56,721 nucleotides of DNA from an uncultured Bdellovibrio sp. (GCA_964359085.1 CAYHRT010000001.1:1-56721), one strand, 5' to 3'. Numbered from the stretch's first letter, positions 8,917 through 52,914 are shown. The notes: generated by a model from the letters alone, not told the origin. Numbers and translations: made by a program.

Positions 8917-10017
8917 ATGTCCGCTGGGAGTATTAGTATTGAAGTGCCAAATTTAGGTGAATCAATCGATGAAGCAGTTATTGTCCAGTGGTTAACCAAG
9001 GAAGGTGATCCAGTTAAAAAAGGTGATGTCATTCTTGAATTGGAATCTGATAAGGCCAATGTTGAAATTCATTCCCCCGAATCTGGAATATTACACGTCA
9101 AAGCGGAAGTTGGGCGTACTGTGAAAATAGGACAGCAAGTTGGAGAAATTGGGCCCGTTTCTGAATCTTCAAATGTAAAGCCAAAGTTAGATACTAATAT
9201 TATTTCAGATAATAAATTGGCCACTCCAGAACCTAAAGCAGAAATACAAGCGAAAAAACAGTTTCTCAATGATTCCCAATGGAGCGAAGAAATTAGTCCC
9301 TTTGTTAAAACCATGGCAAAAAGATTGCTAAAAGCGCAGCAGGAGTCTGTTGCCGCGACAACTTATAATGATGTGGACATGTCAAAGATAATTTCTCTGC
9401 GAGAAAAGCTCAAGACCGAATTTCATGAGAAATATGGCGTAAAATTAGGGTTTATGCCTTTTTTCTGCGACGCTGTTGTTATGACTCTAAAAGAATTTCC
9501 AATTCTAAATGCACAAATGAATGAGCATGAAATTATCTTTAATAAAAAGGTTCATTTAGGCATTGCCATTAGTCGGGAAAAAGGTCTGGTGGTTCCCGTC
9601 ATCAATAATTCAGATGAAATGAGTTATTCCGAGTTCGAAAAAGTAATTGCACAACAAGCTGACAAGGCATCCAAAGGGAATTTGGATTTAGCAGAACTAT
9701 CTGGAGGCACATTTACAATTACTAACGGGGGAATGTTCGGGTCGTTGTTTTCAACTCCTCTCTTAAATCCTCCTCAGGTCGGCATTTTAGGCATGCATCG
9801 TATTGATTATCGTCCTGTGGCGATAAAAAATGAGAAGGAGGTATATCAACTACAAATCAGGCCAATGATGTATTTGGCGCTAACCTATGATCATCGTTTG
9901 GTTGAAGGTAAATTAGCAGTCCAATTCTTGTCACGTCTTAAAGAAAACTTAGAAAATATAGACGAAAAAAAGATTTTTCGGGAAGAAACAAAGGATCAAG
10001 CACAGGAAAAAAGTTAG
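8917..10017 (+). CDS. sucB: dihydrolipoyllysine-residue succinyltransferase (E2o), apparently lacking a peripheral-subunit-binding domain
   Basis: 366 aa, starting 4 nt after the sucA stop. Lipoyl site [10 protein letters not shown]. The catalytic domain carries [10 protein letters not shown] and YDHRLVEG (canonical motif DHRxxDG). The linker at about residues 80-125 has no GxGxxGRI-type PSBD motif. Confidence 0.9.
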
Positions 10018-10034
10018 CGCGAAAGTTCCGGGTG

Positions 10035-10072
10035 CCTGACGCTCTACCCCTGGTACCTCGCACCACAATTGC
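10035..10072 (+). repeat. imperfect direct repeat, copy 1 (cctgacgctctacccc..caccacaatt)
   Basis: Matches 11012-11050 at most positions. Cores of 16 nt and 10 nt are identical. TATAAT lies about 35 nt downstream of both copies. Confidence 0.75.
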
Positions 10073-10959: not shown

Positions 10960-11011
10960 TTGATGGCCATTAATTTGGATAACACAATAATTGGCACGTA
11001 AGTGCAAGATA

Positions 11012-11050
11012 CCTGACGCTCTACCCCGAGTAGCAGTCACCACAATTAGC
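11012..11050 (+). repeat. imperfect direct repeat, copy 2
   Basis: See 10035-10072. Together the two copies bracket the two small secreted-protein genes. Confidence 0.75.
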
Positions 11051-11625: not shown

Positions 11626-11643
11626 GGTGAAGGAATTTTGGCA

Positions 11644-12318
11644 ATGAAAGCTAAAAATGTTACAGCGTCCTGTCATACTTGCCCAGAATGTGAAGGCCGC
11701 AATGTCAAAAGTGGCCCAATCGAACTTAAATTTGATCGCCATATCTTCAAGGCCAGAACCGAAGTCTGTAGAGATTGTGGCAACTACTTGACCTCGCCTC
11801 AATTTGAAAAAAAATTGGAGGAATGGACGAAAAATCTTGGAGCCAACTTCCACCAATATCAGCCAGCCGTTTCAAAAGAAATTTATGAAGACCTTGAAAA
11901 ACTATCTCATCAGCACGGAGTCAAGCCCGCAGTTATGGCCAAAATTATCACCACTGTCTACCTGGAACGTTCAAGAACGACTGAGGGATATGCGGCCTTG
12001 AAGAAATTTATTTTTGATTCAAACACTTTTGCCAAACTAGATAGCGGTAAAAAAGAACGAATATCGATTCCTGTTAAATACGAAATCTACAAGGAGATTC
12101 AGAACTTTGCCCAGATTTGGAATCTCAAAAGCGACACTGAGGTCTTAGCTGAGGCAATCAATTTTTGTGTTGTTCTCCTTTGCCATAGCACTGCTCTCGG
12201 CGAGGAATTCAAACTTGAAATTCGCAAAATTAAAGAATTAGCTACCGTTCGAAATAGTGCCCCTCATATCAAGAAAGTCATTGAATCTGACGTACGCTAT
12301 ATTGCAAAAGCCGCTTAG
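11644..12318 (+). CDS. YgiT/MqsA-type zinc-ribbon protein with unrelated C-terminal domain (possible antitoxin)
   Basis: ATG 11644, with gaagga upstream. N-terminus CHTCPECEG..(26 aa)..CRDCGNYL matches the CxxC..CxxC YgiT-type finger. I cannot recognise an HTH in the C-terminal part of about 160 aa. Confidence 0.6.
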   Translation: MKAKNVTASCHTCPECEGRNVKSGPIELKFDRHIFKARTEVCRDCGNYLTSPQFEKKLEEWTKNLGANFHQYQPAVSKEIYEDLEKLSHQHGVKPAVMAKIITTVYLERSRTTEGYAALKKFIFDSNTFAKLDSGKKERISIPVKYEIYKEIQNFAQIWNLKSDTEVLAEAINFCVVLLCHSTALGEEFKLEIRKIKELATVRNSAPHIKKVIESDVRYIAKAA

Positions 12319-12495
12319 GAGTCGCGCATAAATAAATGTTACAGGTCGCGCCCAGATTTTAGTTAGATTTGAACGCGAAGATTGAGAAAAATGCGAGGAA
12401 TGGCAGGGCCATTTCGCGTATTTTTCGATTGAGAAGCGTTCAAAGATGACTGAAAGATGGGATGCGAGATGTAACATTTATTTATGCGCGACTCC
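12318..12495 (+). repeat. Family-A long-hairpin intergenic element, copy 2 (178 nt)
   Basis: 12318-12343 (ggagtcgcgcataaataaatgttaca) is the exact reverse complement of 12470-12495. The interior is homologous to 607-743. The element exactly fills the gap between two convergent stop codons. Confidence 0.9.
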
Positions 12496-15400
12496 TTAGC
12501 GCGCAGTCAGACTCAAAATATTTTCATACACCACATCATCGCCATAAAAAACTTGCAGGTTGAGCTTAAACGGCTTCTTTTTGGCCTTTGCCTTAAATTG
12601 GTAAGCAAGTTTCAATGCTACTTTTTCACCTCGGCCGATGGAATCGGTATTCAATTCTGCGCGCACGATCTTGAGCAGGCTGCCTGTCTCTTCATCATGC
12701 GAGGTCAGTTTCACGCGATAACCAGATGGCACGTTATCGCGCAAACCTGTTAACACCGTTTCAACTTCATGAATGCGATACTTCCACTTAAATGGCCAAA
12801 ATCCCCAATCGCGCCACTTCGGCTTGGCCTCAAAATTGACCGCAGCACTGATACCTGGGTTTACCTTCACTACGCCTTCGTATGCAATGGGAAGGCGCAG
12901 CTCTCGGGTCACACCATCACCGGGAACAAGCACATGACCTTTTAACCAGAATTTTTCGCCTGGAACAGCATCCTCGCCGATCTGGGCGGCCAAGACATCG
13001 TGCAGTTCAATTACGTGCTGGGAAGGAAGTTCGCGCAATTCGCTGGACTGGGCCTTCATTTCTATATTGCGACTTTTTTCTGAAATTGCTAGGCGACCTA
13101 GAGTAGGAGACAGTGCCACACCACCAGCATTGTATAAATTTATCCCAAGTGCCAGCTGTGCTCCTTGAATTGGGCCTCTGGAATCGTTGGAGATGATCAA
13201 GGCACTGTTGGCGGCCATTAGACGAACAAGGGCGTGGGTGTTAGCAAAATTTTGCGCTTGCTCGCGGCCCTTGGCAAAAGCGCGCGCCTCAGCACCGGGA
13301 AGTGTTTCTGCGAAGCCAATACGCTGCCCATCCTCCTCACCTTTAGCGCGAATTTCGCGCACACCACGTGCACGCGCTTCTGCGTATACCACCACTCGCG
13401 ATTCTTCTTTGGAGACAACAAAGAGATTGTTTTTGTTTTTGATAAAGTTTTTATCAAAATTATGGCGCCATTGCCCGGGATAGTTCAGGGTGAAATTCTG
13501 CCAATGGGCCTCGGTCGCCCCTTGGTTAAAACCGCCATTGTAGGATTCTTCGCAGGCACGCAGATAATCAGCAACTTTTTTATAGACACTGCTGCAATCA
13601 CGCCCACTAACATCGATCGGAATGACACCTGCGCCTTGGTAGGCAACTCTTGTGTCAGAAAAATTCTGACGTGGATCGCGATAGCGCTCAATGTCCTGTT
13701 CTATTTTGAGAATAACCTGATTGACTGCCGAAATAATTTCTTTGGCGGCGGCGATTTCTTCCGGTGACAACTCTGTTTCATCAGTGCTCTCAAGTAATTC
13801 TTTTGTAATAATATTTTTCTCATCATTCTTATTCATTGCTAATGCTTTCAACGTACCATTGCTTAGAACTACACGTGATCTCGGAACTGCCGCCAAAATT
13901 TCTTGCATCCGTTCGGCATAACCCATCGGAACATGGGTGCGCTCCGCCTGTTCTTCGGCCTGGCGACGTCCGAGTTCAAAACCTACCGCATAAGCTTCAT
14001 CGTAATCTACCTTGGAATTTAATCCATCGGCATAACCGGTTTCATCACCGACTAATTTTCCACGCAAGAGTCCGCGCCAACGTCCATCCAACTCGGCCGC
14101 AATCAAACCATACTTGAGACCATTGAGTTCGCCTAAGCGGCGGGCCTCGGCTTCACCCAGCGGTTTGCCTTTGCCACTGCCGACCGGCCGACCTTGCTTG
14201 AATCCAAGATCGCGAGCAGCGGCGAGATATTGTTGGTAACGATTATAGCGCTCTTGATAGGCAGCAAATTTCTCCGCAGTGATGCGCTCTACCGTTTTCG
14301 CCACTTGATCAGCGTCATTAAAAATCTTTTGCAACTGCTGCAGTTCCCCTTGGAATTGCGTCAATTCGCGCTGACGGACGGCGATTAAATTTTGAAATTG
14401 AGAAATATTCGAGCGCGACTCCCGAATCAGCGTTTCAAATTCTACGATGGCCGACTCTCTTGCGGCACGCTCCTGAATCAACTCGGCCCGTAGTGTTTCC
14501 ACTTCACGGCGAACACGTTCATTTTGCTCCAGCAGCGCCAACAGGCGCGAACGTTCATTTTCCAAGGTGCGAACAGCTTGCTGAAGTTGCGCCACTTTCT
14601 GTTCGGCGCGAACGACTTGCTCACGCGCACTTTGAACTGCTGAGGCATATTGGGAGACCTGGCGCTGTAACTCACGCACCTGATTTTGCAGTTGAACTAA
14701 AAACTCGCGCAATTGACCGAGACGTACTTCCATCTGGCGGGTGCGCGCTTCCGATTGAGCGAGTGTGCGCGCCATTTCTCGTACCCGTTCCTCCGTTTGA
14801 AGAACAGCTTGGGTGGCATGCTGTGATTCCACTTCTCGCTGTTGTAAGCGTCTGCCGCTCTCCTGCACTTCCTGCGCCACGCTGTTTCTTCGTACTTCTC
14901 CTTCTCGTATATTTTGTTCTGCGCGAGTCACTTCTGCTTGCCCTCGCGCCACACTCTGCTGGGCCCGCGCGATTGCACTATTGGCCTCTGTGAGACTGCG
15001 CTCAACTTGTTGCAACTCTGCAAGCAAGGTCGGACGACGCGTCTCAAGCTCGCGCTTTTGCCCTTCAAGTTTAGCACGCTCTTGCGCCAAAGAATTCAAT
15101 TCTTGCTGAACTCCACCAAGCTGCTTATTGGCCTCTCCGTGCGCCTGCCTTTTAAGCGCCAGTGCTTCTCTTAAGCCACGTACTTCGGCCTGCAAGCGTT
15201 CATTGTCTGCCCGCAAGGCGCGAATTTTGGCCTGGACCTCGGGAGTTTGTTCTCCCTGAGATAACTCTTTAAGCAGTTCGGCGTTTCTTTTCATGGTGGC
15301 CATCAAAGGTTCCATGACATTTTGACCTAAACGAATTTCTTCCGCCAAACTTGCAATCTGTGCTTGCAGTTCTCTTTCACGCCCTTTTAACTGGCGTTCA

Positions 15401-16347
15401 TGCTCTGGCAGGCGCGCCAGGGTTTCGGCGATTTGTCGTATTTGCCCATCGAGACCCGACAGTTGTGTGTTAATATTTTGCTTTTGCCGCTCGAGTTCAC
15501 GCACCTGATTCTGGCTGGCCAGTAATTCTTGCTTCGATGTTTCCCACTGAGCGCGAGCGCGCTCTAGCGCCTCTCTTGCTGGCGCAATTTCTTGCTCAAT
15601 TTGCCTCAGGCGCGCCTCATTTTGGGCGTGCAACTGGCGCTGTTGCTGAAGCATGGCCTTAAGTTGTCGATCTTGCTCGCGCAACCCGATCAAAGTATTT
15701 TCCAGGGCACTTCGCTCACGTGCCAGTTGCTCAAGCTCGCGCAGGAGCTGCTGGCGCTCGGCAATTAGATTGGCCTCATCGCTGCGAGTTTGGCGCAACT
15801 GCCCTTCCTTTGCATGCAGCTCGCCTTGGGCCAGGGCCTCTGCCCGCTCCACCTGGCGCAGCTCTTCGCGCTCCCGTTCTAACCGCTCAATTTCCCGTTG
15901 TAGATTGAGGCCCTCTGCCTCAAGACGGGTACGGATGTCTCTTTCACTATTTTGCAAACGCCCCTGCTCCACTATTAAATTGCTTAAACGGCCCTCGGCG
16001 CGTGGGATTTCCTCTCTAAGTCGCTGAATCTGGCCGCGATGATTGGCAATTTCGTTCTCGGAGTGGGTGATGGTTTGTTGGTTTGCCTGAATCGCCTCAT
16101 GATGGGAGCGAAGTTCCCCTTGGTGATGACTGATCTGACCTTCTTTGGAGCGAACATTCGCCAGCGCCTCATTGGCATCTTCACGTTTGTCGTCCGAAAT
16201 CGCTTTGGCCGCCAAATAGCGCTGATAATAAGTATCTTTATCAATCTCATCGGGAAGGGCACCAAAGGCCTTGCCTAAGAATAGGATTGTGAGGCCCAGC
16301 ATGGCCAAAATAAAGAAATGAAAGCGCAAATTATTTATCGCCGACAT
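12496..16347 (-). CDS. very large (1283 aa) exported or membrane-anchored coiled-coil protein
   Basis: N-terminal hydrophobic anchor FHFFILAMLGLTILFLGKAFG. About 650 aa of Q/E/R/L/A-rich heptad-like sequence, then a globular C-terminal part of about 550 aa. GC-rich relative to its neighbours. Confidence 0.85.
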   Translation of the reverse strand: MSAINNLRFHFFILAMLGLTILFLGKAFGALPDEIDKDTYYQRYLAAKAISDDKREDANEALANVRSKEGQISHHQGELRSHHEAIQANQQTITHSENEIANHRGQIQRLREEIPRAEGRLSNLIVEQGRLQNSERDIRTRLEAEGLNLQREIERLEREREELRQVERAEALAQGELHAKEGQLRQTRSDEANLIAERQQLLRELEQLARERSALENTLIGLREQDRQLKAMLQQQRQLHAQNEARLRQIEQEIAPAREALERARAQWETSKQELLASQNQVRELERQKQNINTQLSGLDGQIRQIAETLARLPEHERQLKGRERELQAQIASLAEEIRLGQNVMEPLMATMKRNAELLKELSQGEQTPEVQAKIRALRADNERLQAEVRGLREALALKRQAHGEANKQLGGVQQELNSLAQERAKLEGQKRELETRRPTLLAELQQVERSLTEANSAIARAQQSVARGQAEVTRAEQNIREGEVRRNSVAQEVQESGRRLQQREVESQHATQAVLQTEERVREMARTLAQSEARTRQMEVRLGQLREFLVQLQNQVRELQRQVSQYASAVQSAREQVVRAEQKVAQLQQAVRTLENERSRLLALLEQNERVRREVETLRAELIQERAARESAIVEFETLIRESRSNISQFQNLIAVRQRELTQFQGELQQLQKIFNDADQVAKTVERITAEKFAAYQERYNRYQQYLAAARDLGFKQGRPVGSGKGKPLGEAEARRLGELNGLKYGLIAAELDGRWRGLLRGKLVGDETGYADGLNSKVDYDEAYAVGFELGRRQAEEQAERTHVPMGYAERMQEILAAVPRSRVVLSNGTLKALAMNKNDEKNIITKELLESTDETELSPEEIAAAKEIISAVNQVILKIEQDIERYRDPRQNFSDTRVAYQGAGVIPIDVSGRDCSSVYKKVADYLRACEESYNGGFNQGATEAHWQNFTLNYPGQWRHNFDKNFIKNKNNLFVVSKEESRVVVYAEARARGVREIRAKGEEDGQRIGFAETLPGAEARAFAKGREQAQNFANTHALVRLMAANSALIISNDSRGPIQGAQLALGINLYNAGGVALSPTLGRLAISEKSRNIEMKAQSSELRELPSQHVIELHDVLAAQIGEDAVPGEKFWLKGHVLVPGDGVTRELRLPIAYEGVVKVNPGISAAVNFEAKPKWRDWGFWPFKWKYRIHEVETVLTGLRDNVPSGYRVKLTSHDEETGSLLKIVRAELNTDSIGRGEKVALKLAYQFKAKAKKKPFKLNLQVFYGDDVVYENILSLTAR

Positions 16348-28732: not shown

Positions 28733-30112
28733 ATGCGATTAGTCATTATTGATGACGACCCGACCATGGGACCAACCCTCAAATCTGCTGTCGAAGATGC
28801 ACATGAAGTAACCGTATTTAGTGATCCCATTGCCGGCCTTGCTTTTTTAGAAAAGCACGCTGTCGATCTGGTAATCACCGATCAGCAAATGCCGGGCATG
28901 CAAGGAATCGATTTAATCAAAAAGGCCAAAGCCTTCTCTCCTGAAACATCGTTTATTCTCATGACTGCCTATGCCTCGGTTCAAGATGCCGTAACCGCGC
29001 TCCAAAATGGAGCTTCTGACTATATTCTCAAGCCGCTTAACCTGACTGAATTTGATCATCGTTTAAAACGCATTGAAGAACTTAGGGCCCAAGGCCGACA
29101 GATTTCTTTACGCCAGCAAAAATCCAAAGGCCTATCACGTTTGCTTGGTCATAGTGAAAATATGAGGGCGGCGAAAGAATTCGCTGCAAAAGTGGCAGAC
29201 GTACCATCCTCCATTCTCATTTTGGGCCAAACCGGAACAGGAAAAGAAGTCCTGGCGAAATCTATTCATGAATCTTCAAAGAATGCTTTCGGGCCTTTTG
29301 TGGCGATTAACTGCGCCACTCTTAGTAAAGAACTCATGGACTCTGAGTTGTTTGGCCACGAAAAAGGGTCTTTCACCGGTGCCATAGATTCTAGGCAGGG
29401 TAAATTCGAACTGGCGGAAGGCGGTACGATCTTCCTAGATGAAATTGGAGAACTCTCCTATGAGTTACAGGCAAAACTGCTGCGCGTTTTGCAGGAAAAA
29501 GAATTTTATAGAGTCGGTGGGCAAAAGAGCATTCATACTACGGCCAGAGTTATTGCGGCCACTCATCGTGACCTCCTCTCGTTGTCGAAAGAAGGCGCGT
29601 TCCGCGAAGATTTGTTTTTCCGCCTCAATGTTTTATCTTTCACTCTTCTTCCTCTATCAGCAAGGCCAGAAGATTTGAAAGCACTCATCGATTTTTTTTG
29701 GAAAGATTTGTGTATGGAACTCAAACGCTATCCAAAAATGAATGCGCAAGTTGAAAGCAAACTCATGGCCTATGATTATCCGGGCAACATTCGTGAACTC
29801 AAAAATATTTTGGAGCGACTGATCGTGCTGGGCGAAGCTAATAAAGAAGTCAGCGCTACTCTTTTGCCATTAGAAGTATCAAAAAATAACCCAACCCCCG
29901 CTCTTACCTCTTCGACAACTCAATCTCAAACCCTGACCGAAGGCAAAGGACTGAATCAATTTCTAGAAGAAATCGAGTTTCGCATCATTAAGGACATTAT
30001 GGAGCAAGAATCACACAATCAAATCAAAGCGGCCAAGCGATTGCAGCTTACGCGAGGGAGCTTACAGTACAAATTAAAAAAGATGGAAGACTTAGGACTC
30101 ATGACAAAATAA
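28733..30112 (+). CDS. sigma-54-dependent response regulator (NtrC/AtoC family)
   Basis: Receiver (DLVITDQQMPGMQG), AAA+ Walker A GQTGTGKE, GSFTGA (GAFTGA-type loop), Walker B FLDEIGEL, and a C-terminal Fis-type HTH AAKRLQLTRGSLQYKLKK. Confidence 0.92.
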   Translation: MRLVIIDDDPTMGPTLKSAVEDAHEVTVFSDPIAGLAFLEKHAVDLVITDQQMPGMQGIDLIKKAKAFSPETSFILMTAYASVQDAVTALQNGASDYILKPLNLTEFDHRLKRIEELRAQGRQISLRQQKSKGLSRLLGHSENMRAAKEFAAKVADVPSSILILGQTGTGKEVLAKSIHESSKNAFGPFVAINCATLSKELMDSELFGHEKGSFTGAIDSRQGKFELAEGGTIFLDEIGELSYELQAKLLRVLQEKEFYRVGGQKSIHTTARVIAATHRDLLSLSKEGAFREDLFFRLNVLSFTLLPLSARPEDLKALIDFFWKDLCMELKRYPKMNAQVESKLMAYDYPGNIRELKNILERLIVLGEANKEVSATLLPLEVSKNNPTPALTSSTTQSQTLTEGKGLNQFLEEIEFRIIKDIMEQESHNQIKAAKRLQLTRGSLQYKLKKMEDLGLMTK

Positions 30113-30276
30113 GGTGTGCAGATCGCGCCCAGACAAAATAAAAACAATAAGTTGCTAATCCAGAGTTTCTCACTCGGCCATCCTAAAAAAATCTTACTCT
30201 CGCCGGCCAAAACAAATGTCTATTGCATTTCGTTGGAAGTGCTTAAGGGAGCAACATATAATCGCTTGGAATTCAT

Positions 30277-30450
30277 AACCTGAGTTTGGGATTAGGGTCG
30301 TAGCGAGAAGTCGTCTGACAAAGGAGTTCAAGGACGCACAAGTGAAAAACCGGAGGCGTAGCAGAGCTACGTCGAGGATTTTGAACGCGGAGGACGCTGA
30401 AATCCTTTGTTAGGCGGCTTCGCAGTAGACCCTAATCCCAAACTCAGGTT
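30277..30450 (+). repeat. Family-B long-hairpin intergenic element, copy 1 (174 nt)
   Basis: A 23-bp perfect terminal inverted repeat, aacctgagtttgggattagggtc / gaccctaatcccaaactcaggtt. 170 of 174 nt are identical to 52741-52914. Confidence 0.92.
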
Positions 30451-30489
30451 CATAAGTTCTTTAACATCCATTTGCCTAAGGAGATTGCT

Positions 30490-31089
30490 ATGCAATTTAT
30501 TAAGTGTTTGCTCGTCGCTATGCCTTTTTTATTTACCAGCGCCTTCGCCAGTGTCGAAGGCCTGTTCCATGTTGAAAGCTCTTTTTCCTATCTCAAAGGG
30601 AGCAAGACCCTGACTGTACCTGCGGGAGATTATAAAGCAGATTTGAAGGTAAGCAATTCTTCCATGACTTTAAAATTCAGAGATCAGACCGATGAAAAGC
30701 ATAAAATAAAAATGGAAGTCCCACGCGATTCTGTGCCCTCACGCAACGGCAGCTTCCATTATGAAAGCACTCAAGTTGAGCAACCCTTTGATCTATCAGG
30801 TCAGGTGGCGACGCAAGAAGAGAGAACTCCAACCCAATCACGCTATGAGAGCTGCACTTACCAGCGCCCTGTGCAAGTTTGCACCATTGATCCCTACGGT
30901 CGTCGTATTTGTCGCGTAGAATATCAAACAGTACAGGGTAACCACCAAGTGCTGTTTCACTATCTGATTGCACTCCGATCAACACTGGTGAATCTCGAAG
31001 GTGCCACTGATCGCAATCTCTTGGGAAATTTCTCCGGTACCGAAAATATCGAACAAATTATCACCGAACATGTGGGAGCTTGCTATTAA
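30490..31089 (+). CDS. secreted hypothetical protein
   Basis: Start trimmed to ATG 30490 (aaggag 6 nt upstream). Signal peptide MQFIKCLLVAMPFLFTSAFA. Confidence 0.55.
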   Translation: MQFIKCLLVAMPFLFTSAFASVEGLFHVESSFSYLKGSKTLTVPAGDYKADLKVSNSSMTLKFRDQTDEKHKIKMEVPRDSVPSRNGSFHYESTQVEQPFDLSGQVATQEERTPTQSRYESCTYQRPVQVCTIDPYGRRICRVEYQTVQGNHQVLFHYLIALRSTLVNLEGATDRNLLGNFSGTENIEQIITEHVGACY

Positions 31090-31100
31090 GCATAATAAGT

Positions 31101-31188
31101 GAGGTACCATGACCCCTTTGGGACTCATCGCGCCACTTAGCGGCTGCGGTGAGTCCCAAAGGGGTCATGGTACCTCTCATTTTTTTTT
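31101..31188 (+). terminator. intrinsic terminator with an unusually long perfect stem
   Basis: gaggtaccatgacccctttgggactca (31101-31127) pairs perfectly with 31150-31176. A 22-nt loop, then T9 after 4 nt. Confidence 0.75.
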
Positions 31189-52740: not shown

Positions 52741-52914
52741 AACCTGAGTTTGGAATTAGGGTCGTAGCGAGAAGTCGTCTGACAAAGGAGTTCAAGGACG
52801 CACAAGTGAAAAACCGGAGGCGTAGCAGAGCTACGTCGAGGATTTTGAACGCGGAGGACGCTGAAATCCTTTGTCAGGCGGCTTCGCAGTAGACCCTAAT
52901 TTCAAACTCAGGTT
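52741..52914 (+). repeat. Family-B long-hairpin intergenic element, copy 2 (174 nt)
   Basis: Differs from 30277-30450 at only 4 positions (52754, 52875, 52901, 52902), all of them in paired positions. Confidence 0.92.

Follow-up and report, generated by a model that had tools for sequence, protein, structure and literature searches.

In bacteria, a MITE family is usually restricted to a single genus, and it is by their terminal repeats that such families are defined. The Correia/NEMIS elements of Neisseria are foldback MITEs of ~100–160 bp which have terminal inverted repeats and a short duplication and lie between genes. They are co-transcribed with their neighbors, and their long hairpins affect mRNA processing. 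Correia elements occur in one genus only, and the terminal repeats are their conserved part. The ERIC/IRU and YPAL elements of enterobacteria are imperfect palindromes of ~127–170 bp, with an orientation-dependent effect on the flanking mRNA and a narrow host range; we know of no description in these elements of an apex with an A-run, a T-run, and a covarying stem. Multi-copy intergenic hairpin repeats with strand-specific folding are also represented by REPINs/RAYTs and by the PATEs of IS200/IS605, which make no target duplication and are Y1-dependent.

The DNA analyzed here, referred to as the window, is a stretch of 56,721 nt from an uncultured Bdellovibrio sp., a groundwater MAG of the Bdellovibrionota. 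It carries four copies of foldback elements, a density of four in 57 kb, which belong to two families (A and B). The element under study is B1.

30277–30450, + strand: B1 (copy 1 of family B), a non-coding foldback element of 174 nt
30344–30382, + strand: apical module of B1, gaaaaaccggagg-cgtagc-aga-gctacg-tcgaggatttt
52741–52914, + strand: B2 (copy 2 of family B), 98% identical to B1, matched by covariance model R1 at 52796–52860
about 581–759, + strand: A1 (copy 1 of family A), with a perfect inverted repeat of 27/27 nt, matched by R1 at 638–702 (49.7 bits)
about 12318–12495, + strand: A2 (copy 2 of family A), with an inverted repeat of 38 nt (92%), matched by R1 at 12374–12438 (39.2 bits)

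The terminal stem of B1, described in an earlier note on this DNA as a perfect 23-bp stem, is indeed formed by arms of 23 nt (30277–30299 and 30428–30450) which are 100% complementary. The + strand of B1 folds as RNA at -98.7 kcal/mol (z = -12.1) and its complement at -77.6 kcal/mol, i.e., 21 kcal/mol worse. From the ends inward, the 23-bp stem gives way to an internal loop (3 nt/4 nt), then to stems of 4 bp and 17 bp, and finally to the apical hairpin. The inner stem contains the two U·G pairs and the G·U pair which had been claimed for it, and is 17 bp long in this fold rather than 18 bp. The apical module is composed of an A-run, CCGGAGG, the 6-bp stem cgtagc/gctacg, the loop aga, TCGAGG, and a T-run, and the match of covariance model R1 around it (30332–30396) reaches 51.4 bits. 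The ends of family B are AACCTGAG...CTCAGGTT, followed by CATAAG or TTCAGG. The lower loop of B (GTAGCGAG / CGCAGTAGA) recurs in a family from soil, and conserved non-Watson–Crick loops (such as GUAGCGAG / CGCAGUAGA) are common to B and this soil family.

B2 has an inverted repeat of 23 nt (96%) and repeats the B1-type apex at 52811–52841. Four differences separate the two B copies, all of them pairing-neutral on the + strand: a double change (30290 G>A with 30437 C>T) converts a G-C pair to A-T, 30438 C>T toggles a G-C pair to G·T, and 30411 T>C toggles a G·T pair to G-C. The cores of A1 and A2 are 77–82% identical; their outer stems look unlike, and each is self-complementary. The apex shared by both families, as reported in the earlier note, was recovered: that of B1 matches A1 at 653–683, and the third version of the stem, aatggc-agg-gccatt, is present in A2 at 12399–12413. 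The shared apex pattern has three matches in the window at ≤3 mismatches, versus 0.48 expected, and no shuffled sequence reached three. A scan of the window with the covariance model returns these four copies and no others, each on the + strand as had been stated, an arrangement which is not significant alone (p ~0.125).

Sequences related to the ends of these elements are also present elsewhere in the window.

30091–30133, + strand: truncated left end of an A-type element, with 72% identity to the left end of A2, including TCGCGCCCAGA
1719–1836, no strand assigned: B-type terminal repeats in reversed order, right-end-like at 1719–1736 and left-end-like at 1820–1836

The truncated A-type end overlaps the last codons and the stop codon of the sigma-54 regulator gene. 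It is the exact point at which synteny with L152, a relative, breaks; L152 carries ~1.2 kb of other genes there, and the C-termini of the two regulators diverge after ..EDLG. The reversed B-type repeats enclose 83 AT-rich, promoter-like bases, and the left-end-like copy provides a GGAG before ATG 1842. Elsewhere, direct repeats of 62 nt (10009–10070 and 10986–11047, 74% identical) bracket an AT-rich insert of ~1 kb with two small, secreted-looking ORFs, which may be a small island with att-like ends.

To look beyond the window, a search pattern was derived from the apices of the window, three in number, in which N replaced every position of the stem-loop. Against bacterial contigs with one genome per species, it matched 22 loci, about 13 of which were genuine, and against metagenome contigs it matched at least 120 loci; viral contigs gave no match. 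The apex-bearing elements also had no match in plasmids. In every genuine case, the matched sequence caps a long, near-perfect hairpin. Among the matches listed, 131 of 147 were kept on the basis of a palindromic apex and a measurable hairpin, most hairpins being longer than 100 nt, and element lengths of 123–235 nt fell into clusters at ~123–129 nt and ~176–191 nt. In total, more than 100 related long hairpins from at least ten subfamilies were recovered, all of which keep the apex. The carriers are MAGs and metagenomes of Gammaproteobacteria (GC 36–40%), Acidobacteriota (62%), Nitrospiraceae, other proteobacteria, and gut Clostridia (28%). The superfamily is distributed across phyla.

The module which these elements share is ~40 nt long and consists of an A-run, C(C)GGAGG, a covarying stem of 6–8 bp, a loop of 3–8 nt, TCGAG(G/T), and a T-run; because the pattern itself specified them, the A-run, GGAGG, TCGAGG, and T-run columns are in part bound to look invariant. 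It caps a near-perfect hairpin of ~125 or ~180 nt whose outer arms end in terminal inverted repeats. The arms are only ~45% identical between subfamilies, and loci with a GC content anywhere between 28% and 73% retain the apex. In one element (L089), a B-type apex sits on an A-type body. Copies found by the covariance model rather than by the pattern carry GCAGG, ACAGG, and TTGAGG variants with the same fold. One contig (L068) holds four diverged copies of a low-GC subfamily within 5.9 kb (687–753, 2250–2315, 2933–2997, and ~4628), with ACAGG or GCAGG in their apices; the GGAGG motif is therefore not obligatory. The proposal that A and B belong to one superfamily of structured elements is borne out by the more than 100 further copies which keep the apex and by the covariation of the stem positions. 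Families A and B are parts of one large superfamily, which is apparently uncatalogued. Rfam 15 gave no match at the gathering threshold for the window and 15 loci, permissive Rfam E-value scans returned only generic miRNA-precursor matches far below threshold, and a literature search by sequence strings and MITE keywords found no description matching the element.

Several known classes of sequence were considered and set aside. For intervening sequences of ribosomal RNA, the recurring ORF "families" (27 and 16 loci) turned out to result from translating the element, and no rRNA was detected by Rfam. Dif/Xer-like sites, retron msr/msd, 6S, and SRP-like RNAs were dropped, their defining ends, neighboring genes, or Rfam matches being absent. 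A small ORF behind GGAGG would have no conserved start codon or frame across the stems, and GGAGG itself varies to GCAGG/ACAGG. CsrA-type GGA sites and a T-loop were both inconsistent across the variants. With regard to a kink-turn, the tandem A·G/G·A is present in the aligned apices, but the bulge is a single G, versus the 3-nt bulge required.

In seven gut-metagenome loci (L036, L051, L096, L103, L113, L116, and L137), an element of the short family lies between rpsQ and rplN, and ~290 nt comprising the element and its flanks are 100% identical; the surrounding ribosomal-protein genes are only 68–99% identical. This identity could reflect a sweep by recombination or horizontal transfer, or assembly collapse.

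Covariation was counted over 58 distinct apices among the matches listed, with 14 nt of flank per side. The apical helix is 95.5% paired in these 58 apices, and double changes occur in six of its eight pairs. The covariation score of the whole structure was 0.419, against a mean of 0.150 for shuffled alignments; not one shuffle among 500 attained the observed score, although such controls are not to be read as probabilities. Registers in which the partner was slid scored 0.08–0.15, and RNAalifold recovered the same apex from a separate alignment of 32 sequences. The stem takes forms such as aatac..gtatt, cgtac..gtacg, tgtat..ataca, catac..gtatg, tgtgc..gcaca, and cgtagc..gctacg, and its first two pairs, which were left unconstrained, occur as AA-TT, CG-CG, TG-CA, and CA-TG. 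Distinct compensated states number 27 in one large family and 26 in another. The apical stem covaries. It had been envisaged that covariation might be lost when more copies were added, or that the likeness between the A and B apices might vanish elsewhere; the helix covaries over the 58 apices, and the apex is retained in more than 100 copies.

All 58 aligned apices share a G·U pair and a tandem A·G/G·A, together with a bulged G, the invariance of the G·U being largely by construction because the search pattern fixed the GAGG and TCG letters. For a similar reason, a within-family conservation profile of apex versus arms was discarded, since an apex selected with that pattern is bound to look conserved. 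The relA loci of gut Clostridia are too alike to measure selection.

The fold is strand-specific. Among the matches listed, 104 of 110 copies fold more stably as the GGAGG (+) strand than as the complement, the mean difference being 17 kcal/mol. Consensus pairs include 11 G·U versus 0 A·C, and the corresponding cell counts are 256 G·U versus 24 A·C. The apex alone has a mean of -10.4 kcal/mol on the + strand versus -4.6 on the complement (68/68 cases among the matches listed), and the closing C-G pairs of the + apex lie one nucleotide (A) from the U-run. A simple terminator scan called the A1 apex terminator-like; the B1 apex, with only four T, was not called.

These features bear on the possibility that the elements are ordinary palindromic MITEs without any single-strand function, in which the arms are kept by intrastrand repair or re-copying and the apex reflects recent ancestry and horizontal spread. 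The outer stems are perfect at the DNA level (23/23 and 27/27), as such an origin predicts, and the invariance of the apex is partly an ascertainment effect of the search pattern. In addition, the identical ~290-nt block in diverged backgrounds implies that part of the conservation could be due to recent horizontal spread or recombination. However, homogenization of the arms would erase mismatches, yet the G·U (largely by construction), the tandem A·G/G·A, and the bulged G are retained in 58/58 apices, and arms which have fallen to ~45% identity between subfamilies still carry an apex kept over the whole GC range. The large excess of G·U over A·C is also opposite to what a C-to-T bias on the G-rich strand should leave in copies with the orientation described below: such a bias would give A·C on the + strand, so that the G·U excess would not be its by-product. 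We regard this explanation as improbable.

The surroundings of the copies carry marks of insertion.

578–580 and 760–762, no strand assigned: target duplication TTA on both sides of A1
12315–12317 and 12496–12498, no strand assigned: target duplication TTA on both sides of A2
30272–30278, no strand assigned: left TTCATAA direct repeat of B1, overlapping the first 2 nt of the inverted repeat
30449–30455, no strand assigned: right TTCATAA direct repeat flanking B1
30233–30262, + strand: sigma-70-type promoter-like site, TTGGAA-18-TATAAT (10/12 consensus), just upstream of B1

Among the matches listed, 18 of 21 A-lineage insertions have an identical triplet on both sides (TTA/TTA in ten, TAA/TAA in eight). 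Since only three of the 21 are discordant, the triplet is a true duplication rather than a part of the palindrome, and A1 and A2 fit this pattern. Each copy of the A2 duplication shares bases with the stop codon (TAG or TAA) of one of the two convergent genes, 11638–12318 and 12496–16347; thus, A2 occupies the whole intergenic space. In a second family, TA/TA is found at 10 of 20 insertions among the matches listed, in the context C-TA..TA-G. In B and its cluster-2 relatives, the flanks allow more than one reading of the duplication, with lengths between 3 and 7 bp, and the flanking repeat of B2 is imperfect (TTTTAA versus TTTTCA).

Comparison with L152 was informative about the B1 site. The gene 3' of B1 is an ORF which runs from TTG 30472 (probable ATG 30491) to 31089. 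In L152, the TTGGAA-18-TATAAT block is conserved and leads straight to the ribosome-binding site, with a single related ..CTCACAA and no element; at the orthologous point, the window reads TTCATAA-B1-TTCATAA. Because the promoter-like block of L152 adjoins the ribosome-binding site without an element, B1 is located inside the 5' leader of the gene ending at 31089. The earlier placement of B1 downstream of the sigma-54 regulator gene is accordingly narrowed to one between the conserved promoter of the next gene and its ribosome-binding site. Directly after this next gene, a hairpin with unusually long stems (31094–31183; arms of 38 nt, 89% complementary, and a 14-nt loop) is followed by nine T, and is probably its intrinsic terminator.

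The B2 site is likewise empty in the relatives L147, L148, and L149, where the DEAD-helicase and 3D-domain genes are 70 nt apart, and no copy of the elements was found in ~145 kb of sequence from relatives. As the closest sequenced relatives lack the elements, the window copies are recent. It had been suspected that absence from related genomes would mean that only very recent copies exist; the closest relatives are empty as supposed, but the superfamily as a whole is widespread.

Many copies among the matches listed lie at the ends of metagenome contigs. The flanks of the loci show no recurrent neighboring protein gene, and the "conserved ORFs" at the loci are translations of the element only. 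Internal-deletion derivatives retain the terminal repeats alone. Two derivatives (L079 8975–9036 and L060 9475–9550) keep the terminal repeats and the outer stem and have lost the conserved core; at least that in L079 is still flanked by TTA. No autonomous IS with matching ends was detected in ~1 Mb of flanks, in plasmids, or among the 18 window ORFs tested, and a search for a full-length parent IS in plasmids, in viral contigs, and as split half-motifs (~1 Mb of loci) yielded nothing.

With respect to the two flanking genes, 19 copies among the matches listed are in the sense orientation, 18 antisense, 13 convergent, and 7 divergent. The rule suggested by the window, i.e., that copies lie on the same strand as, and downstream of, + strand genes, does not hold generally (19 sense versus 18 antisense), and since orientation relative to genes is unbiased overall, the earlier argument from orientation is removed. 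Copies of the short family within operons (rpsQ-rplN, rplW-rplB, cysD-cysN, and relA) are antisense at eight loci versus one among the matches listed. Several sense copies are wedged tightly between genes, and B1 and B2 are in sense orientation in the leaders of intact genes.

These observations weigh against the elements being genes for structured small RNAs, that is, long hairpins with their own promoters which act in trans and became multi-copy by duplication rather than transposition. Such genes would account for the strand-specific fold, for the G·U found in 58/58 apices and the tandem G·A, and for the non-Watson–Crick loops shared by B and the soil family; moreover, the relA locus of gut Clostridia appears to be single-copy and syntenic, with one exact-pattern match per genome. 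On the other hand, they would leave unexplained the target duplications which covary between left and right, the empty orthologous sites, and the insertion of copies over stop codons and inside operons. No conserved promoter was found in or beside the copies, their orientation is unrelated to that of neighboring genes, and there is no Rfam match. We consider this origin very improbable. The elements have terminal inverted repeats and a flanking duplication, are small, non-coding, multi-copy, and dispersed, and show presence/absence polymorphism. They are MITE-like transposons, not free-standing RNA genes.

A bias in orientation does exist relative to base composition. Among the matches listed, the + strand of the element lies on the C-rich strand at 50 of 73 independent loci (p = 0.002; Wilcoxon 2e-4). 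After the coding-strand effect was removed, the replication-type skew was negative in 32 of 42 loci among the matches listed (p = 4e-4), and the coding-strand term was about zero. The window copies have the same sign of GC skew as other loci, weakly. The orientation bias tracks replication-type GC skew. By the usual rule, G exceeds C on the leading strand, which places the more stable hairpin strand on the leading-strand template.

One strand which folds far better than the other, and an orientation biased relative to replication-type skew, are also what might be expected if the elements moved as single-stranded DNA by means of a Y1/HUH transposase recognizing the hairpin, as do IS200/IS605 PATEs or RAYT-mobilized REPINs. 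A weak Y1_Tnp gene is even present in one related genome (L145). However, Y1 transposition (IS200/IS605) makes no target duplication, and the A-lineage has true 3-bp duplications. The ends show no conserved cleavage tetranucleotide and the flanks vary between copies; no Y1 gene was found near ~140 loci among the matches listed, and the gene in L145 has no elements nearby. The reported preference of IS200/IS605 is for the lagging-strand template, and the location of the stable strand on the C-rich strand is opposite to it. Movement of this kind seems to us hardly credible. The gene in L145 (9248–9907) encodes 219 amino acids with a weak match to Y1_Tnp (IS200-like/RAYT); the near-identical L146 contig has a 93-aa gene and a gap.

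Taken as a whole, including the mechanism outlined below, the evidence is probably best explained by B1 being a non-autonomous foldback MITE copy of the structured-apex superfamily. Its insertion into the 5' leader of the gene ending at 31089 would postdate the divergence of this Bdellovibrionota lineage from those relatives which have been sequenced. Mobility was presumably provided by a transposase, probably of the DDE type, which is supplied in trans and recognizes the terminal repeats. The element may be selected as a single strand of GGAGG polarity. As RNA, the apex would fold, in just one of the two orientations, into a stable hairpin placed directly against a U-run, and might behave as an orientation-dependent terminator, attenuator, or stability hairpin. 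We only infer that the apex has a function, and the case for a terminator role of B itself is weak, as B1 has only four U, was not flagged by the scan, and is in sense orientation in a leader. At replication forks, the strand forming the more stable DNA hairpin would preferentially be spared from serving as the lagging-strand template; the orientation bias might, for instance, arise because copies in the favored orientation persist.

With a core that is conserved and terminal repeats that diverge, the superfamily inverts the ordinary MITE pattern, which counts against the account above. A bolder and rather doubtful proposal is that the apex and the strand-specific hairpin are the working part of a cross-phylum mobile class which acts in single-stranded form, i.e., a MITE superfamily defined by structure. 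In one version, the fold would be needed for propagation via an ssDNA or RNA intermediate recognized at the G·A/G·U apex; in another, hosts would keep the fold as a portable one-way barrier to transcription, oriented to replication.

Under either the MITE account preferred above or this bolder proposal, one structured module of 40 nt is common to elements of Bdellovibrionota, Gammaproteobacteria, Acidobacteriota, Nitrospiraceae, and gut Clostridia, whose termini and arms diverge. What is new is a MITE defined by a structured, strand-specific core common to several phyla; foldback MITEs as such were already known. This raises the questions of whether a MITE can depend on a single-stranded fold, whether it carries an orientation-dependent transcription signal, and how the direction of replication affects where long palindromes survive. 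In practice, the apex pattern and the covariance model offer a handle for annotating such repeats, which break metagenome assemblies, rewrite gene ends (two stop codons in the case of A2), occupy leaders and operons, including those for ribosomal proteins, and are a source of false "hypothetical protein" calls.

Among the systems compared, Correia/NEMIS elements are foldback elements as well; they have no sequence similarity to the A/B superfamily, in which, across phyla, conservation lies in the apex and the termini differ. ERIC/IRU and YPAL sequences are unrelated to the superfamily. SPRITE, compared on these features, is an interspersed small repeat with a terminator-like hairpin, as here, and is restricted to a single species. 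REPINs and PATEs differ in that the present elements have target duplications and no associated Y1 gene. Tourist/mPing (PIF-Harbinger) and the IS5 family (IS1031/IS427 groups) are characterized by 3-bp TWA/TNA or TA duplications and GG/GAG ends. The A-lineage ends (GGGCCCGTC, GGGGCTGT, and GGAGCCTGTCC; GG(G/A)GC..GTC) with their TWA/TA duplication are, in our estimation, similar to those of IS5/PIF-Harbinger. This feature fits family A and its relatives but not B, which has AACCTGAG ends and CAT/TTCATAA flanks, and a matching transposase or full-length IS of this type was not found in plasmids, locus flanks, or the window ORFs tested.

Finally, the attC sites of integrons have conserved ends (RYYYAAC / GTTRRRY) and a variable center, and occur in cassette arrays beside an integrase. 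Identity with attC was rejected: in the elements described here, the center is conserved, the ends vary (AACCTGAG...CTCAGGTT in B), and the copies are dispersed among housekeeping genes. In sedentary integrons, the bottom strands of attC are reported to be kept preferentially on the leading-strand template, which limits their folding (PMC5371416). The likeness lies in strand-specific single-stranded hairpins characterized by structure and unpaired bases, and the orientation bias observed in the superfamily is analogous to that of attC (PMC5371416).
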